From sequence record SRR20825006_567: a stretch of DNA of 36,535 bases, one strand, 5' to 3'. The position numbers and the translations under genes are program-made. Within the stretch, counting starts at the first letter, position 1; each line of letters begins with the position of its first letter. The notes beneath the pieces are model-generated. The model did not search any database and was not told where the DNA came from. It saw only the letters and a list, made by a program, of their open reading frames with translations. This document shows, in pieces, positions 4,824 through 26,268 of the stretch.

Positions 4824-4897
4824 AAATGCCTCCTTGGCATGGGAACGCCTTCGTGGTCTGGTTATCATGCCATGGTTACTGGCCAGGAATATTTCAA

Positions 4898-6978: not shown

Positions 6979-7059
6979 CCCCTACCGTAGGCGCGTCGCT
7001 GGTAGCGCGAGAAGCGAGAAGAAAAACCTGGCCCGGTTTTCGAAACTCGCAACGACGTT

Positions 7060-7078
7060 TCCCCACACAATCCCCACA
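7060..7078 (+). promoter_or_regulatory. cre-tag-like CreB binding direct repeat upstream of creD
   Basis: TCCCCACA repeated with an 11-bp period (CCCAC-N6-CCCAC), compared with the E. coli cre tag TTCAC-N6-TTCAC. Confidence 0.6.
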
Positions 7079-7143
7079 AAAAACCCAAGCAGGTTTCGCA
7101 CACTGGCTTTTCCATAGGAGGCGTCATTTGTGGGAGAGAAACC

Positions 7144-8520
7144 ATGCGACCCAATCTGTTATTGAAAATGTTCACCATTGCCGGGCTGATGCTGGTGCTG
7201 GTGGTGCCGCTGTTGATGATTCAGGGAAAGATCACCGACCGTAGCAATGAAGCCCTGCAGGTCAAACACCAGATTACCCGGCAAGTGAGTGGTGAGCAGC
7301 AGATCAGTGGGCCGCTGATTGTTGTGCCCAGAACCCGTAAACAATTGGTGGAAAAACGCGACTGCCGCAGTGGTGAAACCTGTACGGCCATCGAGCACAG
7401 GCAGGTACTGGATAGCCAGATTCCGGACACCCTGAACATTGATGGCGAGCTGCAAAGTGAAATGCGCTATCGCGGTATTTACGGCGTGCCGGTATACCGA
7501 AGCCTGTTGCACATCGAAGCCGTGTTTCCTGCCAACTGGCAGCAAGTGAGTCAGCCGCAACAGGTGGTGTCGTCACAGGCGCCGTTGTTGCTATTGCAGA
7601 TTCAGGACTTGCGTGGGCTGGTGGAGCGGCCACAAATCCTGGTCAATGATGTGCCGTTGCCCTTGGTGGAAACCGAGCAGTTGCCGGATGGCGTGGGCGG
7701 CAATGCGGTGGCTGTGGCACTGCCAGATGATTTGACCGGGGCTTTTACCGTCAAGGTGCGTTTGAACCTGAACGGTACGGAATCACTCGGTACGCTACCG
7801 CTGGCCAAGGAAACCCGCATGTCACTTCGGGCCGATTGGCCGCACCCCAGCTTTGAAGGGCTGGTGCTGCCGGTGGAGCGGGAGATTACCCCGGAAGGGT
7901 TCACCAGCCAGTGGCGTACCAACAGCCTGGCGGCGGCCAGTGTGATCCACTGCGCCCGGGGTGATGCGGCTTGCGGTGACAGTGGCCAGGCTCTGCGGGT
8001 GCGGTTGGTGCAGCCGGTGACCGGGCTGCTCTCCAGTGAGCGGGCACTGAAGTACAGCTACCTGATTGTCGGGCTGGCTTTCGCGGCTTTCTTTCTGTTT
8101 GAGGTGTTGCGCCGTTATCCATTACACGCCATGCAATATCTGTTGGTCGGTCTGGCGCTGGCCATGTTCTATCTGCTGCTGGTGGCACTGAGTGAACATA
8201 TAGATTTTGTGTTGGCGTATCTGGTGGCCGCGTTATCGTGCTGTGCGCTAATCGGCGTCTATCTGATGGCGGCCATGCGCTCCCTCACCGCTGGCTGGAC
8301 TTTCGCCTTGAGCCTGCTGCTGGTGCAAGGGTTGATCTACGGGATTCTTATGGCCGAAGACTATGCCTTGTTGCTGGGAGCCTTGTTGTTGTTTGCCGCC
8401 TTGGCGGCGGTGATGGTGGTGACGCGCCGGTTGGACTGGTATGCCTTTGCCGTGCCTGGCAAGGCCGCCGCCAAAGTGCAGGCGAGTGCGGCCAGTGCCG
8501 AGAACGGTAACGCACCGTGA
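7144..8520 (+). CDS. creD: Inner membrane cell envelope integrity protein CreD
   Basis: N-terminal TM; RYRGIYGVPVY; ADWPHPSFEG; ERALKY; HAMQYLLVGLALAMFYLLLVALSEH; EDYALLLG; TRRLDWY. Confidence 0.95.
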   Translation: MRPNLLLKMFTIAGLMLVLVVPLLMIQGKITDRSNEALQVKHQITRQVSGEQQISGPLIVVPRTRKQLVEKRDCRSGETCTAIEHRQVLDSQIPDTLNIDGELQSEMRYRGIYGVPVYRSLLHIEAVFPANWQQVSQPQQVVSSQAPLLLLQIQDLRGLVERPQILVNDVPLPLVETEQLPDGVGGNAVAVALPDDLTGAFTVKVRLNLNGTESLGTLPLAKETRMSLRADWPHPSFEGLVLPVEREITPEGFTSQWRTNSLAAASVIHCARGDAACGDSGQALRVRLVQPVTGLLSSERALKYSYLIVGLAFAAFFLFEVLRRYPLHAMQYLLVGLALAMFYLLLVALSEHIDFVLAYLVAALSCCALIGVYLMAAMRSLTAGWTFALSLLLVQGLIYGILMAEDYALLLGALLLFAALAAVMVVTRRLDWYAFAVPGKAAAKVQASAASAENGNAP

Positions 8521-9648: not shown

Positions 9649-10299
9649 TTATTCCCTTTCCTTTCCGTAAGCCCGCAGGAACATATCCACCACTTGTTCG
9701 GCATGGGGGCGTGCTTCATCGGGTGTCATCGGCTGGTTACAGCCAATAATCACACGCATATGCTCACAGCCTTGCAGCAGGCTGAAGAAATTCTCTGCCG
9801 CCTGTTTGGGGTTGTCCGCCTGCAATCGGCCCGTGTTATTGCCGTTGCGTACCAGGTTTTCCATGGCGGTGATGGTGCGTTGCGGGCCAGCTTCAAAAAA
9901 CAGTCGCGACATGGCCGGGTCCTGGGTGGCCAGGCTGCCCATGAGCCGCTGTAGCTCAATCACTTCCGGGTTATGGATAAGCTCGAGAAACGCCAAACCA
10001 ATGTTGATCAAGGTGGTGCGAATCGGCAGTGCCGGGTCCAGCTCGAAGATCGGTACGGGCAGCATGTTGTGACATTCCGCCTCAATCGCTGACGAAAATA
10101 ACGTTTCCTTGTCACTGAAATGGCTATACACCGTGAGTTTGGAGACGCCAGCCTGTTTCGCCACGGCATCCATGCTGGTGCCGGCAAACCCCTGCCCCAG
10201 AAACAGCGTCTTCGCCGCCTCAAGGATAGCGGTGCGTTTGGCCGGGTCTTTGGGGCGGCCGCGCGGATTGGGCTGATCAGGGGAGGCGGTATCGGTCAT
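9649..10299 (-). CDS. mexL: TetR family repressor, MexL-like
   Basis: GRPKDPAKRTAILEAAKTLFL...TSMDAVAKQAGVSKLTVYSHFSDKETLF; FFEAGP; FLRAY; divergent from mexJK-like genes. Confidence 0.8.
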   Translation of the reverse strand: MTDTASPDQPNPRGRPKDPAKRTAILEAAKTLFLGQGFAGTSMDAVAKQAGVSKLTVYSHFSDKETLFSSAIEAECHNMLPVPIFELDPALPIRTTLINIGLAFLELIHNPEVIELQRLMGSLATQDPAMSRLFFEAGPQRTITAMENLVRNGNNTGRLQADNPKQAAENFFSLLQGCEHMRVIIGCNQPMTPDEARPHAEQVVDMFLRAYGKERE

Positions 10300-10334
10300 A
10301 TTTCAATACTGGACGGTTTAGTTTAATAAAATTA

Positions 10335-10352
10335 CTATACTGGCGAGTATAG
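10335..10352. promoter_or_regulatory. Palindromic operator in the mexL/mexJ divergent region
   Basis: CTATACT-GGCG-AGTATAG; related ATACTGG half-site near 10306. Confidence 0.65.
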
Positions 10353-10437
10353 CATGCCGGCAAGCCAAGACCGGCAAAATCCGCCGACTTAACGGGCGGA
10401 TCCGTCTAAAGAGGTGGGGTCAATGAGGGAACCTGTC

Positions 10438-11658
10438 ATGTTTCGTTCTGTTGTGCTGTCGAAAGGGCTGTTGAGAGTGCTGTCGGGGCTGATCGCCACG
10501 GGAATGGCGGCGGGGGCGTTGTCCCTGCAGGGGTGTTCCGATCCGGAGTCGGAAGACAAGGCGCCGGCCCGCCCGGCACTGGTGGCCCAGCCGCTGTCGG
10601 CGGATGCCAGTCAGGACGTGTTCCCCGGTGAAATTCGTGCCCGTTATGAGCCGGAGCTGGGGTTTCGCATTGGTGGCAAGATCAGCCAGCGTCTGGTGGA
10701 CGTGGGTGACCGGGTCAGTGAAGGGACGGTACTGGCCAAGCTGGATACCGACGATGTCAGCCTGAAACTGGATGCGGTGCGGGCGCAGATGGCGTCTGCC
10801 CAGGCCGATCACAAGCTGGCCAGCAGCGAACTGGAGCGCTACCGCGAGCTGATGGAACGCAATGTGATCAGCCGTTCCCAGTTCGACTCTTTTGAAAGCC
10901 GTTATGACGCCAGTGTGGCGCAGTTACGCCAGGCCCGTGCGAACTTGAAGGTGGCCCGTAATCAGGCGGATTACGCATCGCTGAAAGCGCCCCGCGATGG
11001 GGTGATTGCCCAGCGATTGGCGGAGGCTGGCCAGGTAGTGGCTGCTGGTCAGGCGGTGTTTGTGCTGGCAATCGACGGCGACCGCGAAGTGCGGATCGAT
11101 TTGCCGGAGCAGGACGTGGGCCGCTTCAAAATTGGTATGCCGGTGGCGATCGAATTGTGGTCGCGCCCCGGAGAAGTATTCGAAGGCAAGATCCGCGAGT
11201 TGTCCCCTGCGGCAGACCCCCGCTCGCGTACCTTTGAAGCACGGGTCGCTTTCGAAAATGCCACTGTTGGCGCAGATCTGGGCCAATCTGCCCGGGTCTT
11301 TGTCAGCGGAGCCGCCAATGCCGACGTGCTCAGTATTCCCCTGTCGGCGCTCACTGCCGAGGAAGGCGACACCTATGTGTGGGTGGTCAACCCGGACGCG
11401 CTGACATTACAGAAAACGCCGGTAGAAGTGGGGCCCTATCAGGAGCAGGTAGTGCCGGTATTGCGCGGTCTTACATCACAGGACTGGATCGTGACTGCAG
11501 GCACGCAGTTGCTGCGTGAAGGACAGAGGGTTATTCCGGTGGATCGCCAGAACCGTCAGCTGGATCTGGCTGAGGCTGAACCTGGCGAGCAGGCGGCCCC
11601 GGATGCACCGGCTGATGACAGTGCAGACGCGACGCCAAGCCCAGACGCGGACCAATAA
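10438..11658 (+). CDS. mexJ: RND efflux periplasmic adaptor (MFP) lipoprotein, MexJ-like
   Basis: Lipobox LQGC; GEIRARYEPELGFRIGGKI; LKAPRDGVI; RELSPAADPRSRTF. Start uncertain (10423 or 10438). Confidence 0.85.
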   Translation: MFRSVVLSKGLLRVLSGLIATGMAAGALSLQGCSDPESEDKAPARPALVAQPLSADASQDVFPGEIRARYEPELGFRIGGKISQRLVDVGDRVSEGTVLAKLDTDDVSLKLDAVRAQMASAQADHKLASSELERYRELMERNVISRSQFDSFESRYDASVAQLRQARANLKVARNQADYASLKAPRDGVIAQRLAEAGQVVAAGQAVFVLAIDGDREVRIDLPEQDVGRFKIGMPVAIELWSRPGEVFEGKIRELSPAADPRSRTFEARVAFENATVGADLGQSARVFVSGAANADVLSIPLSALTAEEGDTYVWVVNPDALTLQKTPVEVGPYQEQVVPVLRGLTSQDWIVTAGTQLLREGQRVIPVDRQNRQLDLAEAEPGEQAAPDAPADDSADATPSPDADQ

Positions 11659-11665
11659 GGAGAGT

Positions 11666-14600
11666 ATGGCCATGTCGTTCAATCTCTCCGAATGGGCGCT
11701 GAAAAACCGCACCCTGGTGCTCTACGCCATGATTCTTCTCGGTGCCATGGGGGCCATTTCCTATGCCAACCTGGGCCAGAGTGAAGATCCGCCGTTTACC
11801 TTCAAGCTGATGACCATCAACACCCTGTGGCCCGGTGCCAGTGCCGAGGAAGTGTCCCGGCAAATCACCGACCGGGTGGAGAAGAAACTGATGGAGACCG
11901 GCGACTTCGAGCGCATTACCTCCTATTCCCGGCCCGGTCAGTCGTTGGTCATGTTCATGGCTCGCGATGAAATGCGCTCCAAGGAAATCAAGGATCTCTG
12001 GTATCAGGTGCGCAAGAAGGTGGGCGATATTCACCATGCCCTGCCCCAGGACATACAAGGTCCCTTCTTTAACGACGAATTCGGCACCACCTTCGGCAAC
12101 ATTTATGCGCTGACCGGGCAGGGATTCGATTACGCCATCATGAAAGACTACGCCGACCGCTTGCAGCTCGCGCTGCAACGGGTGGATGACGTGGGCAAGG
12201 TGGAATTGATCGGCCTGCAGGACGAAAAAATCTGGGTGGAAATCGCCAATACCAAGCTGGCCTCCCTGGGTATCCCGCTGGTGACGGTGCAGCAGGCGTT
12301 GCAGTCACAAAATGCTGTCGCCGACGCCGGATTCTTTGAGACCCCCAGCAGCCGCGTGCGGCTGCGTGTTTCCGGTGAATTCACCAGTGTGGACGATATT
12401 CGTAACTTCCCCATTCAGGTGGAAAACCGCACCCTGCGTCTTGGCGACATCGCCAACGTTTATCGTGGTTTCAGTGATCCGCCGCAACCGCGCATGCGAT
12501 TCATGGGCGAGAATGCCATCGGTATAGCCGTTTCCATGAAGGATGGCGGCGACATCCTCAAGCTGGGTGACAACCTGGACAAGACCTTCGCCAGATTGCA
12601 GGAAAACCTGCCCATCGGCATGGAGCTACGCAAAGTCTCGGATCAGCCGGCGGCGGTGGAAGCCGGTGTGGGAGAGTTTGTTCAGGTGTTGATGGAAGCA
12701 CTGGCCATCGTGTTGCTGGTGAGCTTTTTCTCGCTGGGCTGGCGCACCGGCCTGGTGGTGGCGTTTTCCATTCCGCTGGTATTGGCGATGACCTTTGCGT
12801 CGATGAAATATTTCGACATCGGCCTGCACAAGATTTCCCTGGGGGCGTTGGTGTTGGCGCTGGGCTTGATGGTGGACGATGCCATTATCGCCGTGGAAAT
12901 GATGGCGATTAAAATGGAGCAAGGCTTCAGCCGTATCAAGGCGGCCGGTTTTGCCTGGACCAGTACCGCCTTTCCCATGCTTACCGGCACCTTGATTACC
13001 GCTGCAGGCTTTCTGCCCATCGCCACTGCGGAATCGAGCACCGGGGAATATACCCGCTCCATCTTCCAGGTGGTGACCATTGCATTGTTGGCTTCCTGGG
13101 TGGCGGCGGTGGTCTTTGTGCCGTATCTGGGGGAAAAGTTGCTCCCCAGTCTGGCCCGTCGTGATGCCAGTGGCGATGTGCATGACCCTTATCAGAAACC
13201 GTTTTATCGCCGTTTCCGTGGCTGGGTAGAGTGGTGCGTGCGTTACCGGAAAACGGTCATCGGGCTGACCGTGGGCATCTTTGTTTTTTCTCTTCTTTTG
13301 TTCAGTTTTGTGCCCCAGCAATTCTTCCCGGCGTCCGGCCGGCTTGAGTTGATGGTGGACATGAAGCTGGAAGAAGGGGCATCGCTGACAGCGACCCAGG
13401 AAAAGGCACTGCGCCTGGAAGCCATGCTTGGCGAAAACGACATGATCGAAAACTACGTGGGTTACATGGGCAGCGGCTCGCCCCGTTTTTATCTGTCGCT
13501 GGATCAGAAATTACCCGCCGCCAGTGTGGCCCAGTTTGTGGTGCTCACCCGAAACGTGGAAGAGCGCGAGGAAGTCCGTGAATGGTTAATGGACACCCTG
13601 GAGCGGGAATTCCCGGCGGTGCGTACCCGTGTCTCACGGCTGGAAAACGGCCCGCCGGTGGGGTATCCCATTCAGCTGCGTATTTCCGGGGAGCATATTC
13701 CCCAGGTGCGCGAACTGGCTCGCAGGGTGGCAGAAAAAGTTCGCGACAACGAGCACACTGCCAATGTGCATCTGGATTGGGAAGAGCCCAGCAAGGTGGT
13801 GCGTTTGATTGTGGATCAGGATCGTGCCCGGACCTTGGGCATCACCACCTCGGATTTGTCCACTGCGTTGCAGGCGTCGCTTTCCGGCGTGGCGGTGAGC
13901 CAGTACCGGGAAGACAACGAACTGATCAATGTGGAAGTGCGTGGCGATAGTCATGAGCGTCATGCGCTGGGCTTGCTGGGCAACCTGGCGGTGCAGACGG
14001 AAAATGGACGCAGTGTGCCGTTGAATCAGGTGGCAACGCTGGAGTCCGGGTTTGAGGAAGGCATCATCTGGCATCGCGATCGTTTGCCCACGGTGACGGT
14101 GTTGGCGGATGTGAAAGACGATGCCTTGCCGGCCACGTTGATGCAGCAAATCATGCCGACTCTGTCCCAGGTGCAGGCAGATCTGCCGCCGGGTTATCTG
14201 CTCCAGGTGGGGGGCACGGTGGAGGAATCCGCGCGGGGTCAAAAATCGGTGAATGCAGGGATGCCACTGTTCATTCTGGTGGTGATTACCTTGCTGATGC
14301 TGCAGCTGCGCAGTTTCCCGTTGTCGTTGATGGTCTTTATTACCGCGCCGTTGGGGCTCATCGGGGTGACTTTCTTCCTGTTGCTGTTCCAGAAGCCATT
14401 CGGGTTTGTGGCCATGCTGGGCACCATTGCACTGGCCGGCATGATCATGCGAAACGCGGTGATTCTGGTGGACCAGATTGGTCAGGACATGGATCAGGGG
14501 CTAACCGCCTGGGACGCCATTATTGAGTCCACGGTCCGTCGTTTCCGGCCGATCGCGTTGACCTCGCTGACGGCGGTTTTGGCGATGATTCCGCTGTCGC

Positions 14601-14737
14601 GCAGTGTGTTCTTCGGCCCCATGGCCGTGGCGATCATGGGGGGGCTGATTGTGGCCACCGCGCTGACCCTGCTGTTCCTGCCCGCGCTCTACGCGGCCTG
14701 GTTCCGGGTGAAAGAAGAGCATGCCGATACAGCATAA
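11666..14737 (+). CDS. mexK: RND efflux permease, MexK-like
   Basis: MSFNLSEWAL...LGQSEDPPFTFK...WPGASAEEV; GPFFNDEFG; GLMVDDAIIAVEMM; RLENGPPVGYP; RFRPIALT; AAGGAG RBS. Confidence 0.9.
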   Translation: MAMSFNLSEWALKNRTLVLYAMILLGAMGAISYANLGQSEDPPFTFKLMTINTLWPGASAEEVSRQITDRVEKKLMETGDFERITSYSRPGQSLVMFMARDEMRSKEIKDLWYQVRKKVGDIHHALPQDIQGPFFNDEFGTTFGNIYALTGQGFDYAIMKDYADRLQLALQRVDDVGKVELIGLQDEKIWVEIANTKLASLGIPLVTVQQALQSQNAVADAGFFETPSSRVRLRVSGEFTSVDDIRNFPIQVENRTLRLGDIANVYRGFSDPPQPRMRFMGENAIGIAVSMKDGGDILKLGDNLDKTFARLQENLPIGMELRKVSDQPAAVEAGVGEFVQVLMEALAIVLLVSFFSLGWRTGLVVAFSIPLVLAMTFASMKYFDIGLHKISLGALVLALGLMVDDAIIAVEMMAIKMEQGFSRIKAAGFAWTSTAFPMLTGTLITAAGFLPIATAESSTGEYTRSIFQVVTIALLASWVAAVVFVPYLGEKLLPSLARRDASGDVHDPYQKPFYRRFRGWVEWCVRYRKTVIGLTVGIFVFSLLLFSFVPQQFFPASGRLELMVDMKLEEGASLTATQEKALRLEAMLGENDMIENYVGYMGSGSPRFYLSLDQKLPAASVAQFVVLTRNVEEREEVREWLMDTLEREFPAVRTRVSRLENGPPVGYPIQLRISGEHIPQVRELARRVAEKVRDNEHTANVHLDWEEPSKVVRLIVDQDRARTLGITTSDLSTALQASLSGVAVSQYREDNELINVEVRGDSHERHALGLLGNLAVQTENGRSVPLNQVATLESGFEEGIIWHRDRLPTVTVLADVKDDALPATLMQQIMPTLSQVQADLPPGYLLQVGGTVEESARGQKSVNAGMPLFILVVITLLMLQLRSFPLSLMVFITAPLGLIGVTFFLLLFQKPFGFVAMLGTIALAGMIMRNAVILVDQIGQDMDQGLTAWDAIIESTVRRFRPIALTSLTAVLAMIPLSRSVFFGPMAVAIMGGLIVATALTLLFLPALYAAWFRVKEEHADTA

Positions 14738-16565: not shown

Positions 16566-17258
16566 CTAACCGTCGCTTCCGGGAAAAAGCGCAGCCAGGC
16601 TCTCCAGTTCCTCTTCCAGATTCCAGTGCATTTCCCGCGCGGTGACATGCAATAGCACCAGTGCATTGATCGGCGCATCGGATTCGCCGCGCTGGCGCAG
16701 TCTCCCGGTAAAACAACGATTCAGTTCATTAAGCGCATCGTAGCGAGCGTTTAACCCTTCCAGTGAAACAGTGGCGTCCGGTTGTTTGCGGTTGAGGAAA
16801 TAACGTTGCAGCAGGTACAGGCTGGCGGTGCGCACCAGGGTTTCGGTGTCGCTGCTCAGTGGCAGGTGAAAGCTGGCCATGGGGCGCAGGAAGCGCGTAT
16901 GCGGGCAGTCGCTCAGCGCGCAGATCAGGCCGAACAGGGAACTGAGAGCGCGCTGCAGGGTGGTGTCCTGATGGTAGTTCCGTTGCGATGTTTGTACGTC
17001 CAGGGTCACCGGCTGAAACGAATCCCCCAGGGCGCAATCGGGTAACAGATAGGCCAGGTTGCGGGCGACGGGGCAGTAGCGGTGCTCGCGGGGGTCCAGT
17101 GGGCAGTGGCTGCACTGGTGATAGCTCAGCTCTGCCCAGTCCGGTGGGGTAAAGGTATCGGGGATGGCGATGGTGCCGTGTTCCTCAACCAGCGTAATCG
17201 GGATGCGTTGCTGTGCCCCGGCGGGTGTGGTGAGGGTGTAAACGAAATCAGGCTGCAT
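16566..17258 (-). CDS. Cys-rich conserved protein, DUF6901-like
   Basis: PDWAELSYHQCSHCPL...YCPVA; ALSSLFGLICALSDCP; FLRPMASFHLPL..ET..R; start overlaps the kinase 3' end. Confidence 0.7.
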   Translation of the reverse strand: MQPDFVYTLTTPAGAQQRIPITLVEEHGTIAIPDTFTPPDWAELSYHQCSHCPLDPREHRYCPVARNLAYLLPDCALGDSFQPVTLDVQTSQRNYHQDTTLQRALSSLFGLICALSDCPHTRFLRPMASFHLPLSSDTETLVRTASLYLLQRYFLNRKQPDATVSLEGLNARYDALNELNRCFTGRLRQRGESDAPINALVLLHVTAREMHWNLEEELESLAALFPGSDG

Positions 17259-18702
17259 CGGCCCGGTCGGTCTGTTTCAGCGGCAGCCGGATGGTAAAGG
17301 TGGTGCCGGCGCCAAGTTGGCTTTCCACGGTCATGGTGCCGCCGTGGTGCTGGATGATGTCGTGGGAAATAGACAGCCCAAGTCCGGTGCCCTGGCCGAT
17401 CGGTTTGGTTGTATAGAAGGGTTCGAAAATCTGCTTGAGAGTATCTTCAGCAATGCCGGGGCCGTCGTCGGTAATAGTCAGGGTGCACCATTGTTCATCG
17501 CAGTCGCCGGCAATGGTGATATTGCCTTTCCCTTCGATGGCCTGGGCGGCGTTGACGAACACGTTCATGAAAACCTGCGACAGCTGGCTTTCCGAGCCGT
17601 TAATAAGCGGCAGGGAATCCGGCAGTGAGTGGCTGACGGTAATGCGGTTTTTCAGTTCATGCTTTGCCAGGTTCAAAGACATTGCCATACAGGTGGCGAT
17701 ATCCGTTGGCGAAAAGGCTTCTGGCTGATTGTGGGAAAAGTGTTTCAGGTCGCGAATGATTTTCTTGATCCGTTCGATGCCTTCGTCGGTTTCGTCCATC
17801 AAGGCGGGATAGTCCGCCATCATGAAGGTCAGCTTGCGGGCATCTACATTCAGGTCGGTTTCTGCATCAAGAAATTGCTGAAATTTTTCTTCGCTAATGC
17901 GTTTTTGTAGCCCCTGAATGATCCCCGCCATGGCGCCAAGATAGTCCCGGCTGCGGTTCAGGTTGGATGACACAAAGGCAATCGGGTTATTGATCTCGTG
18001 GGCGATGCCCGCCGAGATAGTGCCCAGGGAGGCCATTTTTTCCGAGTGCAGCAGTAGTGACTCCACCTGGTCGAGTTTCTGGTTCTTGTCTTTTACTTCC
18101 TGCATCAGCTGGTTGTTTTCGGTCTTGATGCTGGTGATGTCTGTGCCGAAATAAATGTAGCCGTCGTCTTCATCGGAAATGTAGGAAAGCGGGAACAGGA
18201 ACATGTTCATCCAGTAACGGCTGCCCTCCGCATGGCGGTTGCAAACCTCCCCGTTCCATACCCCGGACAGTGCCTGGTTGCACTGCATTACCGGAAGGGT
18301 GTCGTCATCCTTGGGGTGGTTGAAGCTTTCGTTCTGGCCGATCAGTTGTGAAAAAGAGTGTCCGCTCAGCGCGAGAAATTTGCCGTTGGCAAAGGTGATG
18401 GTGCCGTGGCGGTCGGTGGTCAGCACGCAGTACTCGTCGATGATGCGCGCCAGTGGGCCGAGCAGGGCCTTGTTGAGTTTGTATTCGTCCGCATTCACTT
18501 CAATCAGGTGCATCTTGCGGCCAAACCGGTTATCCGTCAGAGATGAGAATTCCGCCAGTTTGGCTTCCACATTGATGGAAGTGCGATAGGTTTTGTATAG
18601 AAAGAAAATAATGATCAGCAGAATCACGGTGGAGCACACTAGGAATAACCCCTGGGCCTCCATGCCAAAGCCGATCTCCGTTTTGTCCAGCAAGCTATTC
18701 AT
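17248..18702 (-). CDS. PAS-domain sensor histidine kinase (NtrB-like HisKA/HATPase), one N-terminal TM
   Basis: PAS (TDRHGTITFANGKF...WNGEVCNR...YW); HSEKMASLGTISAGIAHEINNP; QVFMNVFVNAAQA; DDGPGI; FEPFYTTKPIGQGTGLGLS. Confidence 0.92.
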   Translation of the reverse strand: MNSLLDKTEIGFGMEAQGLFLVCSTVILLIIIFFLYKTYRTSINVEAKLAEFSSLTDNRFGRKMHLIEVNADEYKLNKALLGPLARIIDEYCVLTTDRHGTITFANGKFLALSGHSFSQLIGQNESFNHPKDDDTLPVMQCNQALSGVWNGEVCNRHAEGSRYWMNMFLFPLSYISDEDDGYIYFGTDITSIKTENNQLMQEVKDKNQKLDQVESLLLHSEKMASLGTISAGIAHEINNPIAFVSSNLNRSRDYLGAMAGIIQGLQKRISEEKFQQFLDAETDLNVDARKLTFMMADYPALMDETDEGIERIKKIIRDLKHFSHNQPEAFSPTDIATCMAMSLNLAKHELKNRITVSHSLPDSLPLINGSESQLSQVFMNVFVNAAQAIEGKGNITIAGDCDEQWCTLTITDDGPGIAEDTLKQIFEPFYTTKPIGQGTGLGLSISHDIIQHHGGTMTVESQLGAGTTFTIRLPLKQTDRADAA

Positions 18703-18744: not shown

Positions 18745-19194
18745 CTAGCCCTCGTAACCCATGCTGCGCAGGGTCTCGCGTTGTTCCCGCACGGTTTCCG
18801 CCAGAATACGATTTTCCAGCAGAATATCGCGAAACTTCAGGCCTTCGCGGATATTGTCCAGCAGCTGCTCGTCGTCCCAGGGTTTGGGGATAAAGCGGAA
18901 GGCGCCGGCTTTGTTAATGGCGGACATGACCGTTTCGATGTCGATCACCCCGGTCAGCACAATGCGAATGGTATCGGGCTGCAGATCGCGCAATTCCTGC
19001 AGCAGCTCCAGGCCATTCATCTCCGGCATCATATAGTCGGTGATCACTGCATCGAACACGGTGGTGCGTGCCCGGCGCAGGGCTTCGTGCGGGTTCTGGT
19101 AGGTTTCCACCTCCCAGTCGGTGTAGGTGTTGATGGTGCGTTTCAAGGCTTTGAGGATGTATTCCTCGTCGTCCACGACCATGATCTGATACAT
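18745..19194 (-). CDS. Stand-alone response regulator (receiver plus short coiled-coil tail)
   Basis: IMVVDDE, ITDYMMPEMNG, LTG, FIPKPWDD; no output domain; GAGGG RBS before ATG 19194. Confidence 0.9.
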   Translation of the reverse strand: MYQIMVVDDEEYILKALKRTINTYTDWEVETYQNPHEALRRARTTVFDAVITDYMMPEMNGLELLQELRDLQPDTIRIVLTGVIDIETVMSAINKAGAFRFIPKPWDDEQLLDNIREGLKFRDILLENRILAETVREQRETLRSMGYEG

Positions 19195-19426
19195 GCTGAA
19201 TCCCTCACTCACGGCGTGCTACTACGCTGGCATCCTGCCGGCGACTGCATGCGTTCAACAACGTTGCGCTCCCCCTGACGGGCCAGGGGGGTACCCGGTT
19301 TTACAATACGCCCCGCTCTAGGGGCTGACAATTGACGCCGCCGGCCAGAGGGGGCCGGTCATGCAGCCCGTTTTGCCGTTTGTCTGTGAGGGAGCGCAAA
19401 GCGCAAGAAACGCAACAAAACAGGGG

Positions 19427-19849
19427 CTACGCAGTGTGAATAATGGCCTTGGTGACCGACCCGGTGGCGATCAGTCGTTCCTGTTGTTGTGCGTTTAGCG
19501 CATAGGCTTCTGCACGCATGGCGGCGAGTGTGCGGCCCAGCCGATCCACATGGGCACGAATAATGATCTGCTCGCCCTGGCTGGCGGCGCGCAGCACGCT
19601 GCTGTGGGTTTCGATGGTCACCGCGTGCTGGTCCGATGGCAGTTTGGAGATGGCCGCAAAAAAGCAGGCCACATCCATCAAGGCATAAACGATACCGCCG
19701 TGCAGCGCGCCCTGGGGATTGGTGGTGAAGTCGTTCACCGGAAAGCGGACTTCGCTGCGGCCATCCACCGCGCTGACCAGTTCCAGCTCACAGGCCCGGT
19801 GCAGCGGGTGGGCAAGCACGTCGTCTTTGACCTGATCGATGTGGCTCAT
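19427..19849 (-). CDS. PaaI family (hotdog-fold) thioesterase
   Basis: NPQGALHGGIVYALMD motif; AGGAGG RBS. Confidence 0.88.
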   Translation of the reverse strand: MSHIDQVKDDVLAHPLHRACELELVSAVDGRSEVRFPVNDFTTNPQGALHGGIVYALMDVACFFAAISKLPSDQHAVTIETHSSVLRAASQGEQIIIRAHVDRLGRTLAAMRAEAYALNAQQQERLIATGSVTKAIIHTA

Positions 19850-20012
19850 GGTTCCTCCTGTCAGAATCGTTTTTATGGCGCCGTCACTATACGGCGTCTA
19901 CCGGAAAAACGGGATGGCAGGCTGTTCCGCCCGGTTCCGGGGAACCGTCAGCCTTGACGGCGGTCTATGGGTATCGCAAGGTTGCGACTCTTCCCTCGTT
20001 AGCGGGCATCCC

Positions 20013-20312
20013 ATGAAAGCACTGGTCTACACATTGCTGCTTGTCATCAGTACTCATGTACTGGTGCTGGATGCCATGCATCACGGGCACGATGGTGGCG
20101 CAGCTGCCTCGCTGGAACAGGTCCAGCAGGATCTGGTCAGTGCGGATGTGCTGGACAAAGGCGGCGACCATTGCTGTCAATGCCATGGTTTCATGGCCTC
20201 CACCGATTGTGAGCCGCTGCGCCTGGCCCCGCCCTCTGCAGGTCAAATGGCGTTGCGCCCCTTCCTGCCGGATGCCCCGGCCGATAACCCTTTCCGTCCT
20301 CCTATAGCCTGA
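20013..20312 (+). CDS. Small exported His/Cys-rich protein upstream of czcCBA (CzcI/DUF2946-like; candidate regulatory leader peptide)
   Basis: Hydrophobic N-terminus; HHGHD; DHCCQCHG; Pro-rich C-terminus ending PFRPPIA; likely ATG at 20013. Confidence 0.7.
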   Translation: MKALVYTLLLVISTHVLVLDAMHHGHDGGAAASLEQVQQDLVSADVLDKGGDHCCQCHGFMASTDCEPLRLAPPSAGQMALRPFLPDAPADNPFRPPIA

Positions 20313-20422
20313 TCGTTTCTTCGTTTCCCCGACTTTGTTGCCTTGTCCATCGGTGAATGTGCGCCGTGGCGAGCGTCGGCATTGTTCTTGACGTAACGTT
20401 TTGAGACATCAGGAGTTTCCCC

Positions 20423-21664
20423 ATGGGAATCCAGACCCCAGTGCGCATGGCCGCACTGTTACTGGCCGTGTGCGCGTATGCCAGCGCGTCGGCCGATTCT
20501 TCTTCCTCGCCCGCGCAGTGGGCGCAATGGGTGCAGCGCCAGGTCAGCCAGCTACCGGCCAGCCGGGCCATCCAGGCGGAGCAGGAACGGTTGCTGGCGC
20601 AAAGCCGGGCTTTATCGCAGCCGCTTTATAACCCTTCATTGAATATCGACTACGAAGACAGCCTCGATATCACCCAGACCGTGGGCCTCAGCCAGACGCT
20701 GGACTGGTCCGGCAAGGCCCGCGCCCGCCGTGATGCCGTGGCCGTACGGGATCAGCTGGCGCAGCTGCGTGGCGACAAGGCCCGCGCCCGCCTGCTGGCG
20801 GACAGCCTCAATGCGCTGGTGGCCCATGCCGCCGCCCGCGAGCAATTGGCGGCCGCCCGTGAGCAGGAACAGCAGCTGCGCGATCTCACCGACCTGATTC
20901 GCCGCCGCGAACAGGCGGGGGATGTGGGGCAGGTGGATGCGCAATTGGCCTACCTGTCACTGGGGCAGGCCCAGCAGGCCCTGGCGGATGCGGAAAGTGC
21001 CGCCACCCGTGCTGCCACCACATTGCGCCAGCAACTGGCCAGCCAACAACCCGCGGTGGCCTTGCCGGCGGCGGACCGTTGGCAGGCCCCGTCACTCACC
21101 CATGGTGTCGTGCAACGGCTCCCCACCAGCTTCGATTTGCAGTTGGCCGAGCAGCAACTGGCGCTGGCTGAGCGAGGGGTATCGGTGGCAGACAAACAAC
21201 GCAACACCGACCCGACCCTGGGCCTGCGCGTGGGCCAGGAAGGTGGCGAAAATTTGTGGGGCGTGGATTTCAGCCTGCCATTGAAGTTCTTCAATACCGG
21301 CAAGCCAGGCTATGAAGCTGCCCTGGCGGACAGTGAAGAGCGGCGTGCACTGCTGGAGAAAACCCGCAACGACATTCAGGCCCGGCTGGACGGAGCGTTG
21401 AGCGATTACCAGCAGCGGCGCGAGCGCTGGGAAACCTGGCAACAACTCACCGGCGATAGCCTGGCGCGCAGCGACACCTTGCTCAAGCGCGTCTGGCAGC
21501 AGGGCGAACTCACCACCCAGAACTATCTGCAGGCCTTGAATCAGCGGCTCGATACCCGGCTGGCTGGCATCGCCCTGCGCGATGCCATGCAGCAGGCCTG
21601 GGTGCAGTGGCTCTATGAAAGCGCCCAGCTTAACGACTGGCTGAACCAGTTGGCCAACGAATGA
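20423..21664 (+). CDS. czcC: TolC-family outer membrane factor, CzcC-like
   Basis: Signal peptide; YNPSL; SQTLDWSGKARAR; AGDVGQVD; FSLPL; QGEL; first gene of a CBA set. Confidence 0.82.
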   Translation: MGIQTPVRMAALLLAVCAYASASADSSSSPAQWAQWVQRQVSQLPASRAIQAEQERLLAQSRALSQPLYNPSLNIDYEDSLDITQTVGLSQTLDWSGKARARRDAVAVRDQLAQLRGDKARARLLADSLNALVAHAAAREQLAAAREQEQQLRDLTDLIRRREQAGDVGQVDAQLAYLSLGQAQQALADAESAATRAATTLRQQLASQQPAVALPAADRWQAPSLTHGVVQRLPTSFDLQLAEQQLALAERGVSVADKQRNTDPTLGLRVGQEGGENLWGVDFSLPLKFFNTGKPGYEAALADSEERRALLEKTRNDIQARLDGALSDYQQRRERWETWQQLTGDSLARSDTLLKRVWQQGELTTQNYLQALNQRLDTRLAGIALRDAMQQAWVQWLYESAQLNDWLNQLANE

Positions 21665-21670
21665 TTGTTC

Positions 21671-21738
21671 TGTAGGAACCGAGCTTGCGAGGTAACAGCC
21701 GCAGGCTGGGCCGAAGGGTGAGCGAAGCGAATAACACC
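21671..21738. repeat. GTAG-headed, hairpin-rich extragenic repeat-like element
   Basis: Begins TGTAGGA; contains CAGCC-GCA-GGCTG and ends GAGCGAAGCGAA; adjacent to the REP pair. Confidence 0.45.
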
Positions 21739-21769
21739 GCTTGAAACGAGAAATTAAGCGAAAAATTAC

Positions 21770-21850
21770 TGTAGGAGTGCCACTTGAGGCGCGAATGGTT
21801 TCTGCGACACGCGGTGCCAACTTCTTCGCGCCCTGAACGGCGCTCCTACA
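21770..21850. repeat. Inverted pair of GTAG-family REP elements (REPIN-like)
   Basis: TGTAGGAGTGCCACTTGAGGCGCGAA (21770-21795) and reverse complement TGTAGGAGCGCCGTTCAGGGCGCGAA (21825-21850). Confidence 0.85.
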
Positions 21851-21868
21851 AAAAATGGAAAATTTTTT

Positions 21869-23113
21869 ATGAAAGCGAAAATGACATTTCAAAAAACGCC
21901 GCTAGCCATTGCACTGCTGGCCAGCCTGTCTTTTCCCGTCTGGGCAGAAGGCGAACACGGCCATGATCATGAGGATGTGCCTGCGAAGAGTGAATCCCAT
22001 GCGGACGAATCCCATGATGGTCATGACGACCACGATGCCCATGAAGAGGAAGAAGAAACCGCGCACAATCATGAAGCCGAACACGGCGAACATGACGATG
22101 AAGAAGCGGCACTGGAGCTGACCGCAGAACAACAAAAGACGCTTAACCTGCAGGTCATTACCCTGCAGCCTGATGCCGACGCTACCCGGACCCTGACCGT
22201 GCCGGCGGAAATTATCAGCAACCAGTACCGCACCTGGGTGGTGCCGGTGCGTATCGATTCCCAGGTGCAGTCTCGCAGTGCCACGCTTGGCCAGCACATG
22301 GAAAAAGGGGATGCCATTGCCACCCTGTTCAGCCCGGCCATGGCGCAGTTACAAAGTGATCTGCAAGTGGCAGCGGACGGCTGGCGGCGGGTTAAAAACC
22401 TCGGCCGGCGTACCGTGGGCAACCAGCGCTATCTGGACGCGCAAAGTCAGTACCAGTCCCTGCGAGCCCGGGCCAAGGGTTATGGCCTCAGTAACAGCGC
22501 CATCGCTGATATCGAAGCCGGAAAAAATGAAAAAGGGGTTTATACCCTCACAGCGCCGGACGATGGCCTGGTGCTGGAAGATGCCTTCCAGCAAGGGCAA
22601 TGGTTAACCGCGGGCAGCGCCCTGGTCACGCTGGTGGATGAATCCGAACTGTGGGCCGAAGCCGCCCTGCCGCCGAGCCCCGGTTTGCAGATCAGCACCG
22701 GTACCCCGGCCCGCGTCATCGTGGGTGGCACATCCGTGGACGGCAAGGTGATCCAGTCTGGCCATCGCCTCAATCCCGTCACCCGTACCCTTGCGGTGCG
22801 AGTGGCGATTCCCAATGCGGGCCATCTGTTGCACCCCGGCATGTTTGCCGATGTGGCACTGGCGTTGGCGGCACCGGAGAACACCCTCACCGTGCCGGAA
22901 GAGGCGCTCACCCGTAGCGCCGATGGCGATTGGCAACTGTTCGTGGAAGAAGAGCCTGGCCACTACAAACCCGTGGAAATCCAACTCAATGGCCAGCTGG
23001 AAAACCGCCGCATCGTTACGGGTCTTGAACCGGGTACGCGCGTGGTCACTCGCGGGGCGTTTTTTCTGGCCAGTGAAATGGCTAAGTCCGGTTTCGATAT
23101 TCACAATCACTGA
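21869..23113 (+). CDS. czcB: Heavy-metal RND periplasmic adaptor, CzcB/CusB-like, with His/acidic N-terminal tract
   Basis: Signal peptide; 12 His in an approximately 50-aa acidic tract; LTAPDDGLV; TRTLAVRV; LHPGMFA; C-terminal DIHNH. Start could be 21881. Confidence 0.88.
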   Translation: MKAKMTFQKTPLAIALLASLSFPVWAEGEHGHDHEDVPAKSESHADESHDGHDDHDAHEEEEETAHNHEAEHGEHDDEEAALELTAEQQKTLNLQVITLQPDADATRTLTVPAEIISNQYRTWVVPVRIDSQVQSRSATLGQHMEKGDAIATLFSPAMAQLQSDLQVAADGWRRVKNLGRRTVGNQRYLDAQSQYQSLRARAKGYGLSNSAIADIEAGKNEKGVYTLTAPDDGLVLEDAFQQGQWLTAGSALVTLVDESELWAEAALPPSPGLQISTGTPARVIVGGTSVDGKVIQSGHRLNPVTRTLAVRVAIPNAGHLLHPGMFADVALALAAPENTLTVPEEALTRSADGDWQLFVEEEPGHYKPVEIQLNGQLENRRIVTGLEPGTRVVTRGAFFLASEMAKSGFDIHNH

Positions 23114-23124
23114 GGATCACCGTC

Positions 23125-26100
23125 ATGTTTAATCGACTTGTCGATTGGGCGGTGAACAACCGCCTCATTGTGTTGCTGTTACTGGTCATCACCATTGGCG
23201 TGATCGGCTGGCAATTACCCAACCTGAAGCTGGATGCCTTCCCGGATGTAACCAACGTCCAGGTACAGGTGAATACCGAGGCCGAAGGCCTGGCCGCGGA
23301 AGAAGTGGAGCAGCTGATCACCTATCCCATCGAGGCGGTGATGTACGCGCTGCCCCAGGTGGCCGAGGTACGCTCCATCTCCAAGACCGGCCTGTCCATC
23401 GTCACCGTGGTGTTCGAGGAAGGCACCGATATCTACTTCGCCCGCCAGCTGGTGTTCGAACGCTTGCAGGCGGCACGGGAGGATATTCCCGACGGCGTCG
23501 GCACCCCGGAAATGGGCCCCAACACCTCCGGCCTGGGTCAGGTCTATCAATACCTGCTCACCGCCGAGCCCGGCTCCAATGTGGATGCCATGCAGTTGCG
23601 CAGCCTCAACGATTGGGTGGTGAAACTGCTGCTCATGCCGGTGGGTGGCGTCACCGATGTGCTCAGCTATGGCGGTGAAGTGCGCCAGTATCAGGTCAAC
23701 GTGAACCCCACCCGGTTGCTGGCCTACGACCTGAGCTTGCAACAGGTCATGGATGCCATCGCCGCCAACAACCGCAACGCCGGTGGCTGGTATCTGGATC
23801 GCGGTGCCGAGCAATTGGTAATTCGTGGCATGGGCTGGGTAGGCAGCGGCGAGCAAGGGCTCGGCGACATTGCCGCCATTCCCCTCAAGGAAGTGGACGG
23901 CACCCAGGTGCGCGTAAGCGATGTGGCCAAGGTGGAGTTCGGCGGCGAAATTCGTCAGGGCGCCCTCACCATGACCCGCCGCGATGCCAACGGCGAACCG
24001 GAAGCCCTCGGTGAAGTGGTAGCCGGAATTGTGCTCAAGCGCATGGGCGCCAATACCAAGGCCACCATCGACGGCATCAAGGAACGCGAAGCGCGCATCC
24101 AGCAGGCCCTGCCGGACGGTGTGCAGTTCGAGGTGTTCTATGATCAGGCAGATCTGGTGGAAAAAGCCGTCAGCACCGTGGTCACCGCCTTGCTGCTGGC
24201 CTTCGTGTTTATCGTCATCGTGCTGGCCCTGTTCCTGATGAACCTGCGCGCCACGGCGTTGGTGCTGCTGTCCATTCCGCTCTCCATCGGCCTGGCCTTG
24301 CTGGCGATGGCAAGCCTGGGCATGTCTGCCAACCTGATGTCACTGGGCGGATTGGCCGTGGCCATCGGCATGCTGGTGGATGGCTCCGTGGTGATGGTGG
24401 AAAACATCTTCAAACACCTGAGCCGCAAGGAAGGCAGTCATGACTCACAGGGCGGCATCGCTCTGAGAGTCAAAGACGCCGCCCAGGAAGTGGCCCGCCC
24501 GGTGTTCTTTGCCGCCAGTATTATTCTGGTGGTGTTCCTGCCCCTGTTTGCCTTCGAGGGGGTGGAAGCCAAGATGTTCGTGCCCATGGCCATCAGCATC
24601 ATGCTTGCCATGACCGCCGCCGTACTCGTGGCGTTGATCGTGGTGCCGGCCCTGGCCGGCTTCCTGTTCCGCAACGGCGTGGAAGAAAAGCCCAACAAGC
24701 TGATGCAGTGGCTGGAAGCCCGCTATCGCATCCTGCTGGGCAAAGCCATGCAGGCCCGTAAAGTGGTGGTCGGTGGCGCGGTGGGTTTGTTTGCCCTGGC
24801 ACTGGCAACCACGCCGTTTATTGGCACTGAATTTGTGCCGGTGCTGGAAGAGGGAACGTTGGCGTTACGTGTGACGCTGGCGCCGTCCTCCAGTCTCGAT
24901 ACTGCGTTGGACGTGGGTAAAAAACTGGAGAAGGAAATCATGACCTTCCCGGAAGTGACCTACGCGCTCAGCCGGGTAGGGCGTGCCGAAATCGGTGGCG
25001 ACCCGGAACCGGTGAGCAACGTGGAAATCTATATCGGCCTGAAACCGGTTAGCGAATGGGAAAGCGCCAGCAATCGCCTGGAGCTACAGGAAAAAATTCA
25101 GCAGAAACTGGAAAAACATCCCGGCCTGCTACTCAACTTTTCCCAACCCATCGCCATGCGCGTGGACGAACTGCTCTCCGGGGTAAAAGCCCAGCTCGCC
25201 ATCAAACTGTTCGGCCCGGATCTCAACGTGCTGCAGGAAAAAGGCGAAGCCATCACCCAGGCCGTCAAAGAAGTTGAAGGCGCCACCGATGTGCAACTGG
25301 AACAGATCGCCGGGGAAGCCCAGCTGGTGGTCACCCCGGACCGGAACGCCCTCAGCCGCTACGGCCTGAGTGTGGATCAGGTCATGGACCTGGTCAGCAA
25401 CGGCCTCGGTGGCGGCAGCGCCGGGCAGGTGATTAACGGCAACGAACGCTACGACATCTATGTGCGCCTGGAGCAAGACGCCCGCAAGGACGCCGAAGCC
25501 ATTCGCAACCTGCGCCTGAAAGCGGCAGACGGTGCCTGGGTGCGCCTTATGGATGTGGCAGAGGTATCCCTGGTCTCCGGCCCGCCACAGATCAGCCGCG
25601 ATGACGTGCAACGCCGCGTGGTCATCCAGGCCAATGTGGCTGGTCGCGACATGGGCTCCGTAGTGGCCGACATCCAGCAGGCCATCGACAGCGAAGTCGA
25701 CCTGCCCGCCGGCTACAGCGTGGACATCGGCGGCCAATACGAAAACCAGCAGCGCGCCCAGCAACGCCTGGCCATGGTGGTGCCCGTGGCAGTGGGTCTG
25801 ATCGCCCTGTTGCTCTACTTCGCCTTCGGCTCCGTGGCCCAGGCCGCTCTCATTCTGGTCAACGTCCCCCTGGCCCTCATTGGCGGCATCCTCGCCCTGG
25901 CCCTCAGCGGCCAGTACCTGTCCGTGCCCAGCTCCGTGGGCTTTATCACCCTGTTCGGTGTGGCGGTGCTTAATGGCGTGGTGATGGTGGAAGCCATCAA
26001 TCATCGCCTGCGCGAAGGCGAAGCCCTGGAGGCGGCGATCTTCGAAGGGGCGGTATCACGCCTGCGCCCGGTACTGATGACCGCACTCACTTCCATGCTG

Positions 26101-26268
26101 GGGTTGATTCCCATGTTGCTGGCTACCGGGGTGGGCAGTGAGGTGCAGCGGCCGTTGGCGGTGGTGATTGTGGGCGGGCTGGTGTCGGCGACGGCGTTGA
26201 CGTTGTTGGTGTTGCCGAGTCTTTATGGGGTGTTTTCGAGGGGGAATGTGGCGGAATTGCAGCGATAA
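23125..26268 (+). CDS. czcA: CusA/CzcA family heavy-metal efflux RND permease
   Basis: DAFPDVTNVQVQV; EVEQLITYPIE; TDIYFARQLVFERL; ANLMSLGGLAVAIGMLVDGSVVMVEN; FSQPIAMRVDELLSGVKA; RLRPVLMTA; GSEVQRPLA. Confidence 0.93.
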   Translation: MFNRLVDWAVNNRLIVLLLLVITIGVIGWQLPNLKLDAFPDVTNVQVQVNTEAEGLAAEEVEQLITYPIEAVMYALPQVAEVRSISKTGLSIVTVVFEEGTDIYFARQLVFERLQAAREDIPDGVGTPEMGPNTSGLGQVYQYLLTAEPGSNVDAMQLRSLNDWVVKLLLMPVGGVTDVLSYGGEVRQYQVNVNPTRLLAYDLSLQQVMDAIAANNRNAGGWYLDRGAEQLVIRGMGWVGSGEQGLGDIAAIPLKEVDGTQVRVSDVAKVEFGGEIRQGALTMTRRDANGEPEALGEVVAGIVLKRMGANTKATIDGIKEREARIQQALPDGVQFEVFYDQADLVEKAVSTVVTALLLAFVFIVIVLALFLMNLRATALVLLSIPLSIGLALLAMASLGMSANLMSLGGLAVAIGMLVDGSVVMVENIFKHLSRKEGSHDSQGGIALRVKDAAQEVARPVFFAASIILVVFLPLFAFEGVEAKMFVPMAISIMLAMTAAVLVALIVVPALAGFLFRNGVEEKPNKLMQWLEARYRILLGKAMQARKVVVGGAVGLFALALATTPFIGTEFVPVLEEGTLALRVTLAPSSSLDTALDVGKKLEKEIMTFPEVTYALSRVGRAEIGGDPEPVSNVEIYIGLKPVSEWESASNRLELQEKIQQKLEKHPGLLLNFSQPIAMRVDELLSGVKAQLAIKLFGPDLNVLQEKGEAITQAVKEVEGATDVQLEQIAGEAQLVVTPDRNALSRYGLSVDQVMDLVSNGLGGGSAGQVINGNERYDIYVRLEQDARKDAEAIRNLRLKAADGAWVRLMDVAEVSLVSGPPQISRDDVQRRVVIQANVAGRDMGSVVADIQQAIDSEVDLPAGYSVDIGGQYENQQRAQQRLAMVVPVAVGLIALLLYFAFGSVAQAALILVNVPLALIGGILALALSGQYLSVPSSVGFITLFGVAVLNGVVMVEAINHRLREGEALEAAIFEGAVSRLRPVLMTALTSMLGLIPMLLATGVGSEVQRPLAVVIVGGLVSATALTLLVLPSLYGVFSRGNVAELQR

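Follow-up and report, generated by a model that had tools for sequence, protein, structure and literature searches.

Metal sensing by a nascent chain has been shown experimentally for the leaders of one oxidase (CutF) and one importer (CruR). In CutF, from the cutFOG operon of Rhodobacter capsulatus, copper on an exported CxxxC motif causes a stall at a C-terminal PPP, whereupon the stem over cutO's Shine–Dalgarno (SD) sequence melts; EF-P normally relieves this stall (10.1101/2025.02.05.636593). CruR (Bp2923, Bordetella pertussis) has RAPP as its arrest site, and copper lifts the arrest, leading to Rho-dependent termination; its 45 intervening residues are kept within one or two over more than 2000 DUF2946 proteins, and the addition of five residues causes copper control to be lost or impaired (PMC9426467). 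CutF-like genes are described in PMC9973294 by their length (<150 amino acids), PP in the last 15 residues, a same-strand downstream gene within <1000 nt and an N-terminal signal; their commonest neighbours are OEP, ACR_tran and HlyD_D23, and stem-loops masking the next SD sequence are reported. Leaders 5′ of RND efflux genes are, in that bioinformatic sense, already known, and the extension to efflux is so far a bioinformatic statement in PMC9973294 only; our literature search gave no experimental paper. Here we analyse a 36,535-nt stretch of record SRR20825006_567 (the window, to which all coordinates refer), in which an open reading frame (ORF) for 99 amino acids stands ahead of a czcCBA-like efflux operon and would be its cis-acting leader. 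Comparison with relatives indicates that the stop codon of this ORF lies within a helix that is real, under selection, and pairs with the SD sequence of the czcC-like gene; an Arg-Pro-Pro (RPP) sequence close to the stop codon is a candidate arrest or pause core.

The leader ORF runs from ATG 20013 to TGA 20310–20312 and, like the operon and the RNA elements described below, lies on the plus strand. Its product (MKALVYTLLLVISTHVLVLDAMHHGHDGG...DHCCQCHGFM...PDAPADNPFRPPIA, the tail being PDAPADNPFRPPIA) begins with a hydrophobic helix, a candidate signal peptide or N-in anchor (residues 2–25; 20016..20087), which is predicted with a local confidence score (pLDDT) of 92–95 and is invariant in alignment A1. 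This overlaps an HHGHD motif (residues 23–27; 20079..20093), of which H23, H24, H26 and D27 are invariant in the same alignment, and is followed by the Cys/His motif HCCQCH (residues 53–58; 20169..20186), in which H53, C54, Q56 and C57, together with the adjoining G59, are invariant in 12 diverse family members (alignment A4; 33–74% identity to the window protein). The candidate core, Arg95-Pro96-Pro97, is encoded at 20295..20303. After a gap of 110 nt on the same strand comes the gene for the outer-membrane efflux protein (OEP; czcC/cusC-like, 413 amino acids, 20423..21664; PF02321, E = 5.6e-17), whose SD sequence AGGAG (20411..20415) is 7 nt 5′ of the ATG at 20423. An earlier, sequence-only reading of this DNA had reported the ORF, both motifs, the tail and two stretches complementary to the ribosome-binding site of czcC, and all are present where it placed them.

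The leader resembles CutF in being a small first gene with a putative export signal, a Cys motif and a Pro-Pro C-terminus, in having a stem-loop that shields the SD sequence of the next gene, and in a presumed role in inducing a detoxifying function. Its length, the PP at residues 96–97 and the 110-nt gap agree with the description of CutF-like genes, as does the N-terminal signal, judged from the hydrophobic helix only. CutF has PPP, CxxxC and a multicopper oxidase as its target, whereas the window leader has RPP, CCQC plus HHxHD, and an HME-RND pump; unlike in CutF, the anti-SD strand of the window leader holds its own stop codon. With CruR it shares a CXXC motif, an R..PP sequence 2–4 residues from the C-terminus, a fixed spacer, a putative export signal and the position of first gene in a metal-related operon. 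CruR, however, combines RAPP with 45 intervening residues, compared with RPP and 37 in the window family, and acts on TonB-dependent importers through Rho-dependent termination, whereas the target here is an efflux pump. SecM-secA and the RAPP/RAGP leaders are alike in that an SD-hiding stem is opened when an exported leader undergoes arrest close to its C-terminus, but SecM-type leaders monitor secretion activity rather than a ligand, and their cores are RAGP, RAPP and RGPP. CzcI of Cupriavidus metallidurans is likewise a small ORF 5′ of czcCBA with a proposed regulatory role, but, according to PMC9973294, lacks the C-terminal proline motif.

Conservation of the peptide in spite of synonymous codon changes indicates that the leader ORF is a real conserved gene under selection. 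Presence in genomes was asked of relatives only: by a profile of the 12 diverse members, 39 of 70 genomes from the taxonomic family contained the leader, including 24/24 of the nearest genus and 10/19 of a second. Sixteen homolog clusters were recovered from a collection of 5.8 billion proteins, the named ones all being Alcanivorax-like, and the family is narrow, since only 14 clusters emerged at E <= 0.001 when 1.84 billion representatives were searched exhaustively with a profile. A tblastn search of 72,556 plasmids with the leader gave no match. The sequence-only reading had placed a ribosome stall at RPP, and this motif is invariant in 32/32 unique close-clade ORFs, in 12/12 diverse members and in eight further distant loci; across the family it takes the form [F/Y/D]-R-P-P and is placed 2–4 residues ahead of the stop codon in every case. 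Among the 32 ORFs, R95, P96 and P97 are each a single amino acid written with three codons, and I98 a single amino acid with two. Counting from the last Cys (of CCQC), the first Pro of RPP comes 39 residues later in 11 of the 12 diverse members and 43 later in the remaining one (L057); the figure is 38–44 in the eight distant loci, and the sequence of the linker varies. That the leader heads an OEP/RND operon also holds throughout the sampled loci, as an OEP gene lies 3′ of it in 54/55 loci by tblastn, and Pfam identifies one in 8/8 distant downstream ORFs, including the locus missed by tblastn.

Three observations concern individual leader sequences. At 20085–20086 all four RNA-library runs show CA for GG, giving Gly25Gln (HHQHD) as in L002 and L007, which represents strain variation. 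L002 itself is a 1.6-kb contig of a Sedimenticola-labelled metagenome-assembled genome whose leader is 99% identical to that of the window, and is probably a mis-binned Alcanivorax-like contig. L050 combines a clade-B N-terminal half with a clade-D C-terminal half and intergenic region, and is either a recombinant or a chimeric assembly.

The two stretches complementary to ATCAGGAG (20408–20415) are CTCCT (20299–20303) and CCTGAT (20308–20313). In the minimum free energy (MFE) fold it is the latter that pairs: CCUGAU 20308–20313 with AUCAGG 20408–20413 and, after a bulged C, GUUUC 20315–20319 with GAGAC 20403–20407. The 5′ strand of the helix (CC-UGA-U, bulged C, GUUUC; 20308..20319) thereby includes the leader stop codon 20310–20312, and the 3′ strand (GAGAC plus AUCAGG; 20403..20413), seen both in the MFE fold and in relatives, covers the AGG of the czcC SD sequence. 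For comparison, 19 genome and 40 metagenome loci were collected, from which we left out L052 and L056 (cut inside the leader), L058 and L059 (non-relatives) and L051 (an N and a broken frame), whilst L053–L055 and L057 were handled apart as distant; the remaining 51 sequences, including the window, gave 28 unique versions of the leader tail, intergenic region and czcC start (alignment A2). The final codon is GCC and the stop TGA in 32/32 unique ORFs, the following base is T in 31/32, and the SD block AUCAGGAG, including AGGAG, is invariant in 28/28 unique sequences. The core pairs are formed in 28/28, or 27/28 at U13–A117, and since they are near-invariant these six pairs are uninformative alone.

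The flanks of the core, on the other hand, covary. Clade B has UCG...CGA, L009 has UUC...GAA and L011 has UUUUUU...AAAAAA, and the clade of the window has the bulge followed by GUUUC...GAGAC or GAAAC. At pair 14/116 of the alignment there are 10 C-G, 3 U-A and 15 other combinations, and at pair 15/115 there are 9 G-C, 5 G-U, 3 U-A and 10 others. Paired cells make up 87%, against 27–52% when the 3′ partner is slid by 1–3 columns. Column-wise covariation is modest (score 0.107 vs 0.080, with 7 of 500 shuffles reaching 0.107), and because, outside the 6-bp core, the register of the helix changes from clade to clade, a clade-swap test was added. Using 18-nt segments, native duplexes averaged -15.7 kcal/mol (n = 21 unique combinations), compared with -10.8 for cross-clade duplexes (n = 310) and -10.2 kcal/mol for shuffled 3′ flanks; the native assignment was the best of 120 permutations of the five clades, and no other reached the observed mean.

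The sequence-only reading had noted the complementarity of CCTGAT to the czcC ribosome-binding region and had proposed computational tests, among them one for covariation across orthologs; most of these turn out in its favour, and both the pairing and its covariation are upheld by the clade swap, the column counts and the distant lineages discussed below. Its other proposed anti-SD sequence, CTCCT, fared less well: CUCCU occurs in 12/32 unique ORFs and CUCC in 28/32, with no covariation found, and the latter count arises because Pro96 is CCU 28 times, CUCCU being simply Pro-Pro written as CCU-CCU. On the comparative evidence, the conserved anti-SD sequence is CCUGAU, containing the leader stop codon, plus downstream bases. 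An alternative register is possible for CUCC, as L072 has CUCCUAUCG opposite CGAU-C-AGGAG. The codon Pro96 (20298–20300) is CCU in 28/32 unique ORFs, compared with other conserved Pro columns, which favour CCG (27/32 and 25/32); this preference may reflect the alternative CUCC anti-SD sequence or an effect of the codon on pausing.

The centroid fold additionally contains a small hairpin, UUCCC-CAU-GGGAA (20417..20429), with the czcC start codon in its loop and stem. Other clades have CUUUCC-CAU-GGAAAG at this position, and pair 128/136 of A2 is C-G in 13, U-A in 10 and U-G in 5 sequences, with none unpaired; the compensatory change also alters codon 2 of czcC from Gly to Glu. As both the helix and this hairpin are kept across clades, the SD sequence and the AUG are each held in conserved structure. 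The hairpin could stack on the SD helix or serve as a second lock.

Eight distant leaders, three from metagenomes (L053, L054 and L057) and five from family genomes (L071, L072, L073, L074 and L076), keep [F/Y/D]RPP and the His/Cys cluster, and several have rebuilt the pairing in other sequences. In L071 it is CUCUAUCU/AGAUAGAG, in L073 CACUUC-UGAUCA/UGAUCG-GAGUG, and in L074 a UAG stop lies within UUUAGUCCU/AGGACUAAA; in L057, CCUGUUC/GAACAGG falls just 3′ of the stop codon, and in L053, CCUCGUC/GACGAGG falls just 5′ of it. The share of mononucleotide shuffles reaching the native duplex energy (the shuffle fraction) is 0.0005 for L057, 0.0105 for L071, 0.012 for L074, 0.039 for L073, 0.0505 for L053, 0.11 for L072, 0.19 for L076 and 0.58 for L054, so that five of the eight lineages are at about 0.05 or less and three are not; Fisher's combined p over the eight is 4.2e-6. 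In the MFE folds of 14/14 representative loci, SD bases pair at the leader's stop codon or within ~7 nt of it.

The leading edge of a ribosome lies at about +16 in toeprinting practice. The 5′ strand of the helix occupies +11 to +22 relative to the Pro96 codon's first base, and a ribosome with Pro96 (20298–20300) in its P site would therefore reach 20313, where CCUGAU ends; once the stop codon occupied the A site, the ribosome would extend to ~20322 and cover the entire 5′ strand. The earlier proposal that a ribosome at RPP covers the anti-SD sequence thus fits the CCUGAU strand exactly, on the assumption of a +16 leading edge. The anti-SD sequence of L057 is 3′ of the stop, so that only a ribosome that had reached the last codons would cover it. 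A pause anywhere from RPP to termination would be expected to keep the SD sequence free.

These features suggest a mechanism in which the leader ORF acts in cis on the czcCBA-like operon. The last sense codon, the UGA and about seven further bases (20308–20319) would pair with 20403–20413 whilst the hairpin holds the czcC AUG, and a ribosome on the last leader codons would, by sequence and geometry, have to unwind the helix. Arg-Pro-Pro, 2–4 codons 5′ of the stop, would slow or arrest that ribosome, leaving the SD sequence open for 30S initiation on czcC; by analogy with CutF, metal on the exported nascent chain would prolong the pause, so that more pump is made as periplasmic metal rises. Which metal acts, and in which direction, are matters of inference, the CutF direction being the sensible one for an efflux pump. 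Translational coupling through the helix is well supported by the comparative data and we consider it quite probable. The fixed ruler, the export helix and the design shared with CutF and CruR are best read as signs of regulated, metal-influenced pausing at RPP, a proposal that we regard as evenly poised between right and wrong. The explanation as a whole, in which cis leader, helix, RPP pause and metal sensing are combined, is the one that we moderately favour.

Several observations weigh against this explanation. The helix covers the AGG alone of AGGAG, and the C that follows the stop codon in L028 breaks one pair. Clades were set by eye from intergenic similarity, without a tree; in the swap test, the clade A 5′ strand with the clade B 3′ strand (-14.0 kcal/mol) exceeds native clade A (-13.2), and the native duplex of L018 is weak, being equalled by 27% of shuffles. 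Of the distant lineages, L054 and L076 are without significant pairing, and L053 and L072 are borderline. Masking the 5′ strand raises the mean unpaired probability of the SD sequence modestly, from 0.15–0.31 in the full RNA to 0.17–0.50, and in L011, L019 and L053 there is no gain because the SD sequence takes other partners. If the ribosome stalled as presumed, only ~39–42 residues would separate the Cys motif from the peptidyl-transferase centre, placing the motif close to the tunnel exit or translocon and not clearly in the periplasm. Finally, RPP differs from RAPP and RGPP, which are robust, EF-P-refractory arrest cores (PMC12992588; PMC9426467), and EF-P normally resolves a pause caused by X-Pro-Pro alone (10.1101/2025.02.05.636593); RPP would more likely be a context-dependent di-prolyl pause.

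Under a simpler explanation, the leader is a small exported metal-binding protein (a CzcI-like accessory, chaperone or regulator) whose translation is tied to that of czcC by the helix without regulated arrest, RPP being a motif for structure or interaction. Such coupling would equally lead one to expect the helix and its covariation, and the strong conservation of the N-terminal helix and of the His and Cys motifs is as in a functional protein. The arrest cores demonstrated in PMC12992588 do not include RPP, and CzcI, located 5′ of czcCBA, is discussed in PMC9973294 as a metal-sensing regulator without a Pro motif. Against this, the linker varies in sequence but its 38–44 residues are fixed, which suits a ribosome ruler over a folded domain; the position of RPP 2–4 residues from the stop puts the anti-SD sequence at the leading edge of an RPP-occupied ribosome; and unrelated DUF2946 leaders have the same layout. 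An AlphaFold2 model from the 12-sequence alignment is confident for the N-terminal helix alone (mean pLDDT 65.5; predicted TM score 0.27), and the absence of a fold beyond residue 25, which also tells against a folded accessory protein, is weak evidence for an unstructured leader because the alignment is shallow. We consider simple coupling without regulated arrest rather unlikely.

In a CruR-type attenuation mechanism, the paused ribosome would block Rho, which would terminate transcription early in czcC once the pause was relieved or if czcC went untranslated, and the helix would be secondary. CruR is itself the precedent (PMC9426467); the first ~40 nt 3′ of the stop codon appear by eye to be pyrimidine-rich and G-poor, and the absence of an intrinsic terminator in a consensus scan of 19700–20600 would also be in keeping with Rho. 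However, a covarying helix that sequesters the SD sequence points to control of initiation, the intergenic regions of 37–117 nt are shorter than the 162 nt of cruR–bfrG (PMC9973294), and the logic of CruR, in which metal lowers expression, is in the wrong direction for a detoxifying pump; attenuation of this type is improbable. A chance ORF with chance complementarity and no function deserves mention, since 5–6 complementary bases within 100 nt are common and the fold of 20280–20440 has a z score of only -1.23, with 23 of 200 shuffles as good. The latter result goes against our preferred explanation and does not bear out the idea that the complementarity exceeds chance in the window alone; as the window fold is no better than its shuffles, the case for the helix rests on the relatives. 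There, the presence of the leader in family genomes, synonymous variation under a fixed peptide, covariation and the rebuilt pairings of distant lineages make a chance origin extremely improbable.

The sequence-only reading had likened the leader to the DUF2946 type, a relationship that we could not substantiate. Searches with the leader protein gave no match in NCBIfam and none in Pfam at E <= 10, DUF2946 (PF11162) included, and among nine distant relatives only one (P0020) scores on DUF2946, at 13.2 bits (E = 0.16) compared with a cut-off of 23.7. Alignment of the 12-member family with eight genomic DUF2946 proteins (A4 vs A3) by hhalign gave a probability of 0.95% (E = 0.057) and involved the N-terminal helix alone; in a language-model atlas, DUF2946 accounts for 2/30 and DUF6660 for 2/30 of the nearest clusters, which is a lead only. 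The CXXC-type metal motif is present (C54-C-Q-C57), but the RAPP core is not, the R being joined directly to PP without an intervening residue, and the Cys-to-Pro spacing is fixed but shorter than in eight genomic DUF2946 sequences (45–50 by the same count). The same genus also has true DUF2946 genes, whose products have ...PPRGPPVSA or ...RAPPYYA at the C-terminus (L060–L062 and L064; genomes G001, G008, G010 and G013). In one of these, L064, the stop codon also pairs with the following SD region (CCUGAUU/AAUCAGG, shuffle fraction 0.001), GCC-UGA-UU standing opposite AAUCAGGA of the next gene. The leader family and the DUF2946 leaders therefore have a design in common, with sequences that are not demonstrably related. 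Our tentative, and less probable, view is that the family is separate from DUF2946 and reached the same design independently (export helix, Cys/His sensor, 38–44-residue ruler, RPP and a stop codon in the anti-SD strand), such that an HME-RND pump, possibly for divalent metals, would be tuned purely by translation, without a two-component system.

The remainder of the operon comprises a periplasmic adaptor (CzcB/CusB-like, HlyD type; 21869..23113; PF16576 and TIGR00999) with a His/Asp/Glu-rich N-terminus, and an HME-RND pump of the CusA/CzcA family (23125..26268; TIGR00914, 1069 bits). Against the pump, ZneA scores 678 bits and CusA 602 bits, a slight lead for ZneA; the pump's fourth transmembrane segment (TM4) reads AIGMLVDGSVVMVEN, with the motif AIG..VDGS..VEN, and the ligands offered by the leader are Cys, His and Met. 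The OEP and adaptor genes are separated by 204 nt (21665–21868), which contain repeated CTGTAGGA(G/A) units and GC-rich inverted pieces; these resemble REP-type intergenic repeats.

On its 5′ side the leader is neighboured by a divergent hotdog thioesterase, a receiver-only response regulator (18745–19212, minus strand) and a PAS histidine kinase (17248–18702, minus strand). Window annotation places no OmpR-type two-component regulator beside the operon, in agreement with the earlier remark that no czcRS/cusRS-type regulator sits there; the sole OmpR-type pair in the window is CreBC-like (4826–6978), 13 kb from the operon, and the CreB/CreC-like pair is followed by CreD (4826–8520 in all). A MerR-family gene lies at 35930. 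A second RND system spans 9649–14737 (adaptor 10414–11658, pump 11516–14737 and a divergent TetR gene 9649–10299).

Contigs from RNA libraries (4/4 runs from three studies) extend from the leader through the intergenic region into the beginning of czcC, although carry-over of DNA is possible: X10 at 20001–20570, X12 at 20005–20538, X5 at 19953–21337 and X7 at 20273–20674. These are compatible with co-transcription, a contig being no proof of a single transcript, and the absence of cover 5′ of ~19950 in three of the four runs carries no weight. Two contigs from two studies (X12 and X10) end at 20538 and 20570, some 115–150 nt into czcC, and later contigs have lower depth figures; we did not count these ends or depths as evidence for attenuation, as parts of a gene cannot be ranked by contig depth and the comparison involved RNA runs alone. 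The consensus scan of 19700–20600 gave no site for promoters or for terminators. Upstream, a block at 19932–19987 contains GGAAC, TTGAC (19954–19958) and GTC, invariant in 11 aligned loci; in the clade of the window it includes the inverted repeat CGGTTCC-GG-GGAACCG (19932–19947) and the palindrome TCGCAAGGTTGCGA (19974–19987), instead of which other clades have a direct repeat TGACCG.. ~23 nt apart. This block could be a sigma-70 promoter with a weak -10 element (TTGACG-N17-CAAGGT), an extracytoplasmic function (ECF)-type promoter (GGAAC-N17-GTC) or a set of operator sites. One X7 RNA contig stops at 19988, where adapter-like letters adjoin it, a hint that a 5′ end lies at this site.

The RPP core, the shorter ruler and the stop codon within the anti-SD strand set this leader apart, and with its short length, covariation-defined helix partners and fixed ruler, the locus offers a clean test case. 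Natural variants predict the outcome of mutagenesis, namely the UAG stop of L074 with its compensating partner, the U>C change of L028 and the +4 spacer of L057. If the family did reach its design independently and tunes the pump purely by translation, RPP would be a new pause core tuned by a ligand, whilst the stop-codon/SD helix would be a general grammar held in common with DUF2946 leaders such as L064. The host belongs to a hydrocarbon-degrading marine genus and has no CzcRS beside the operon, so that the pump may have the leader as its main metal switch.

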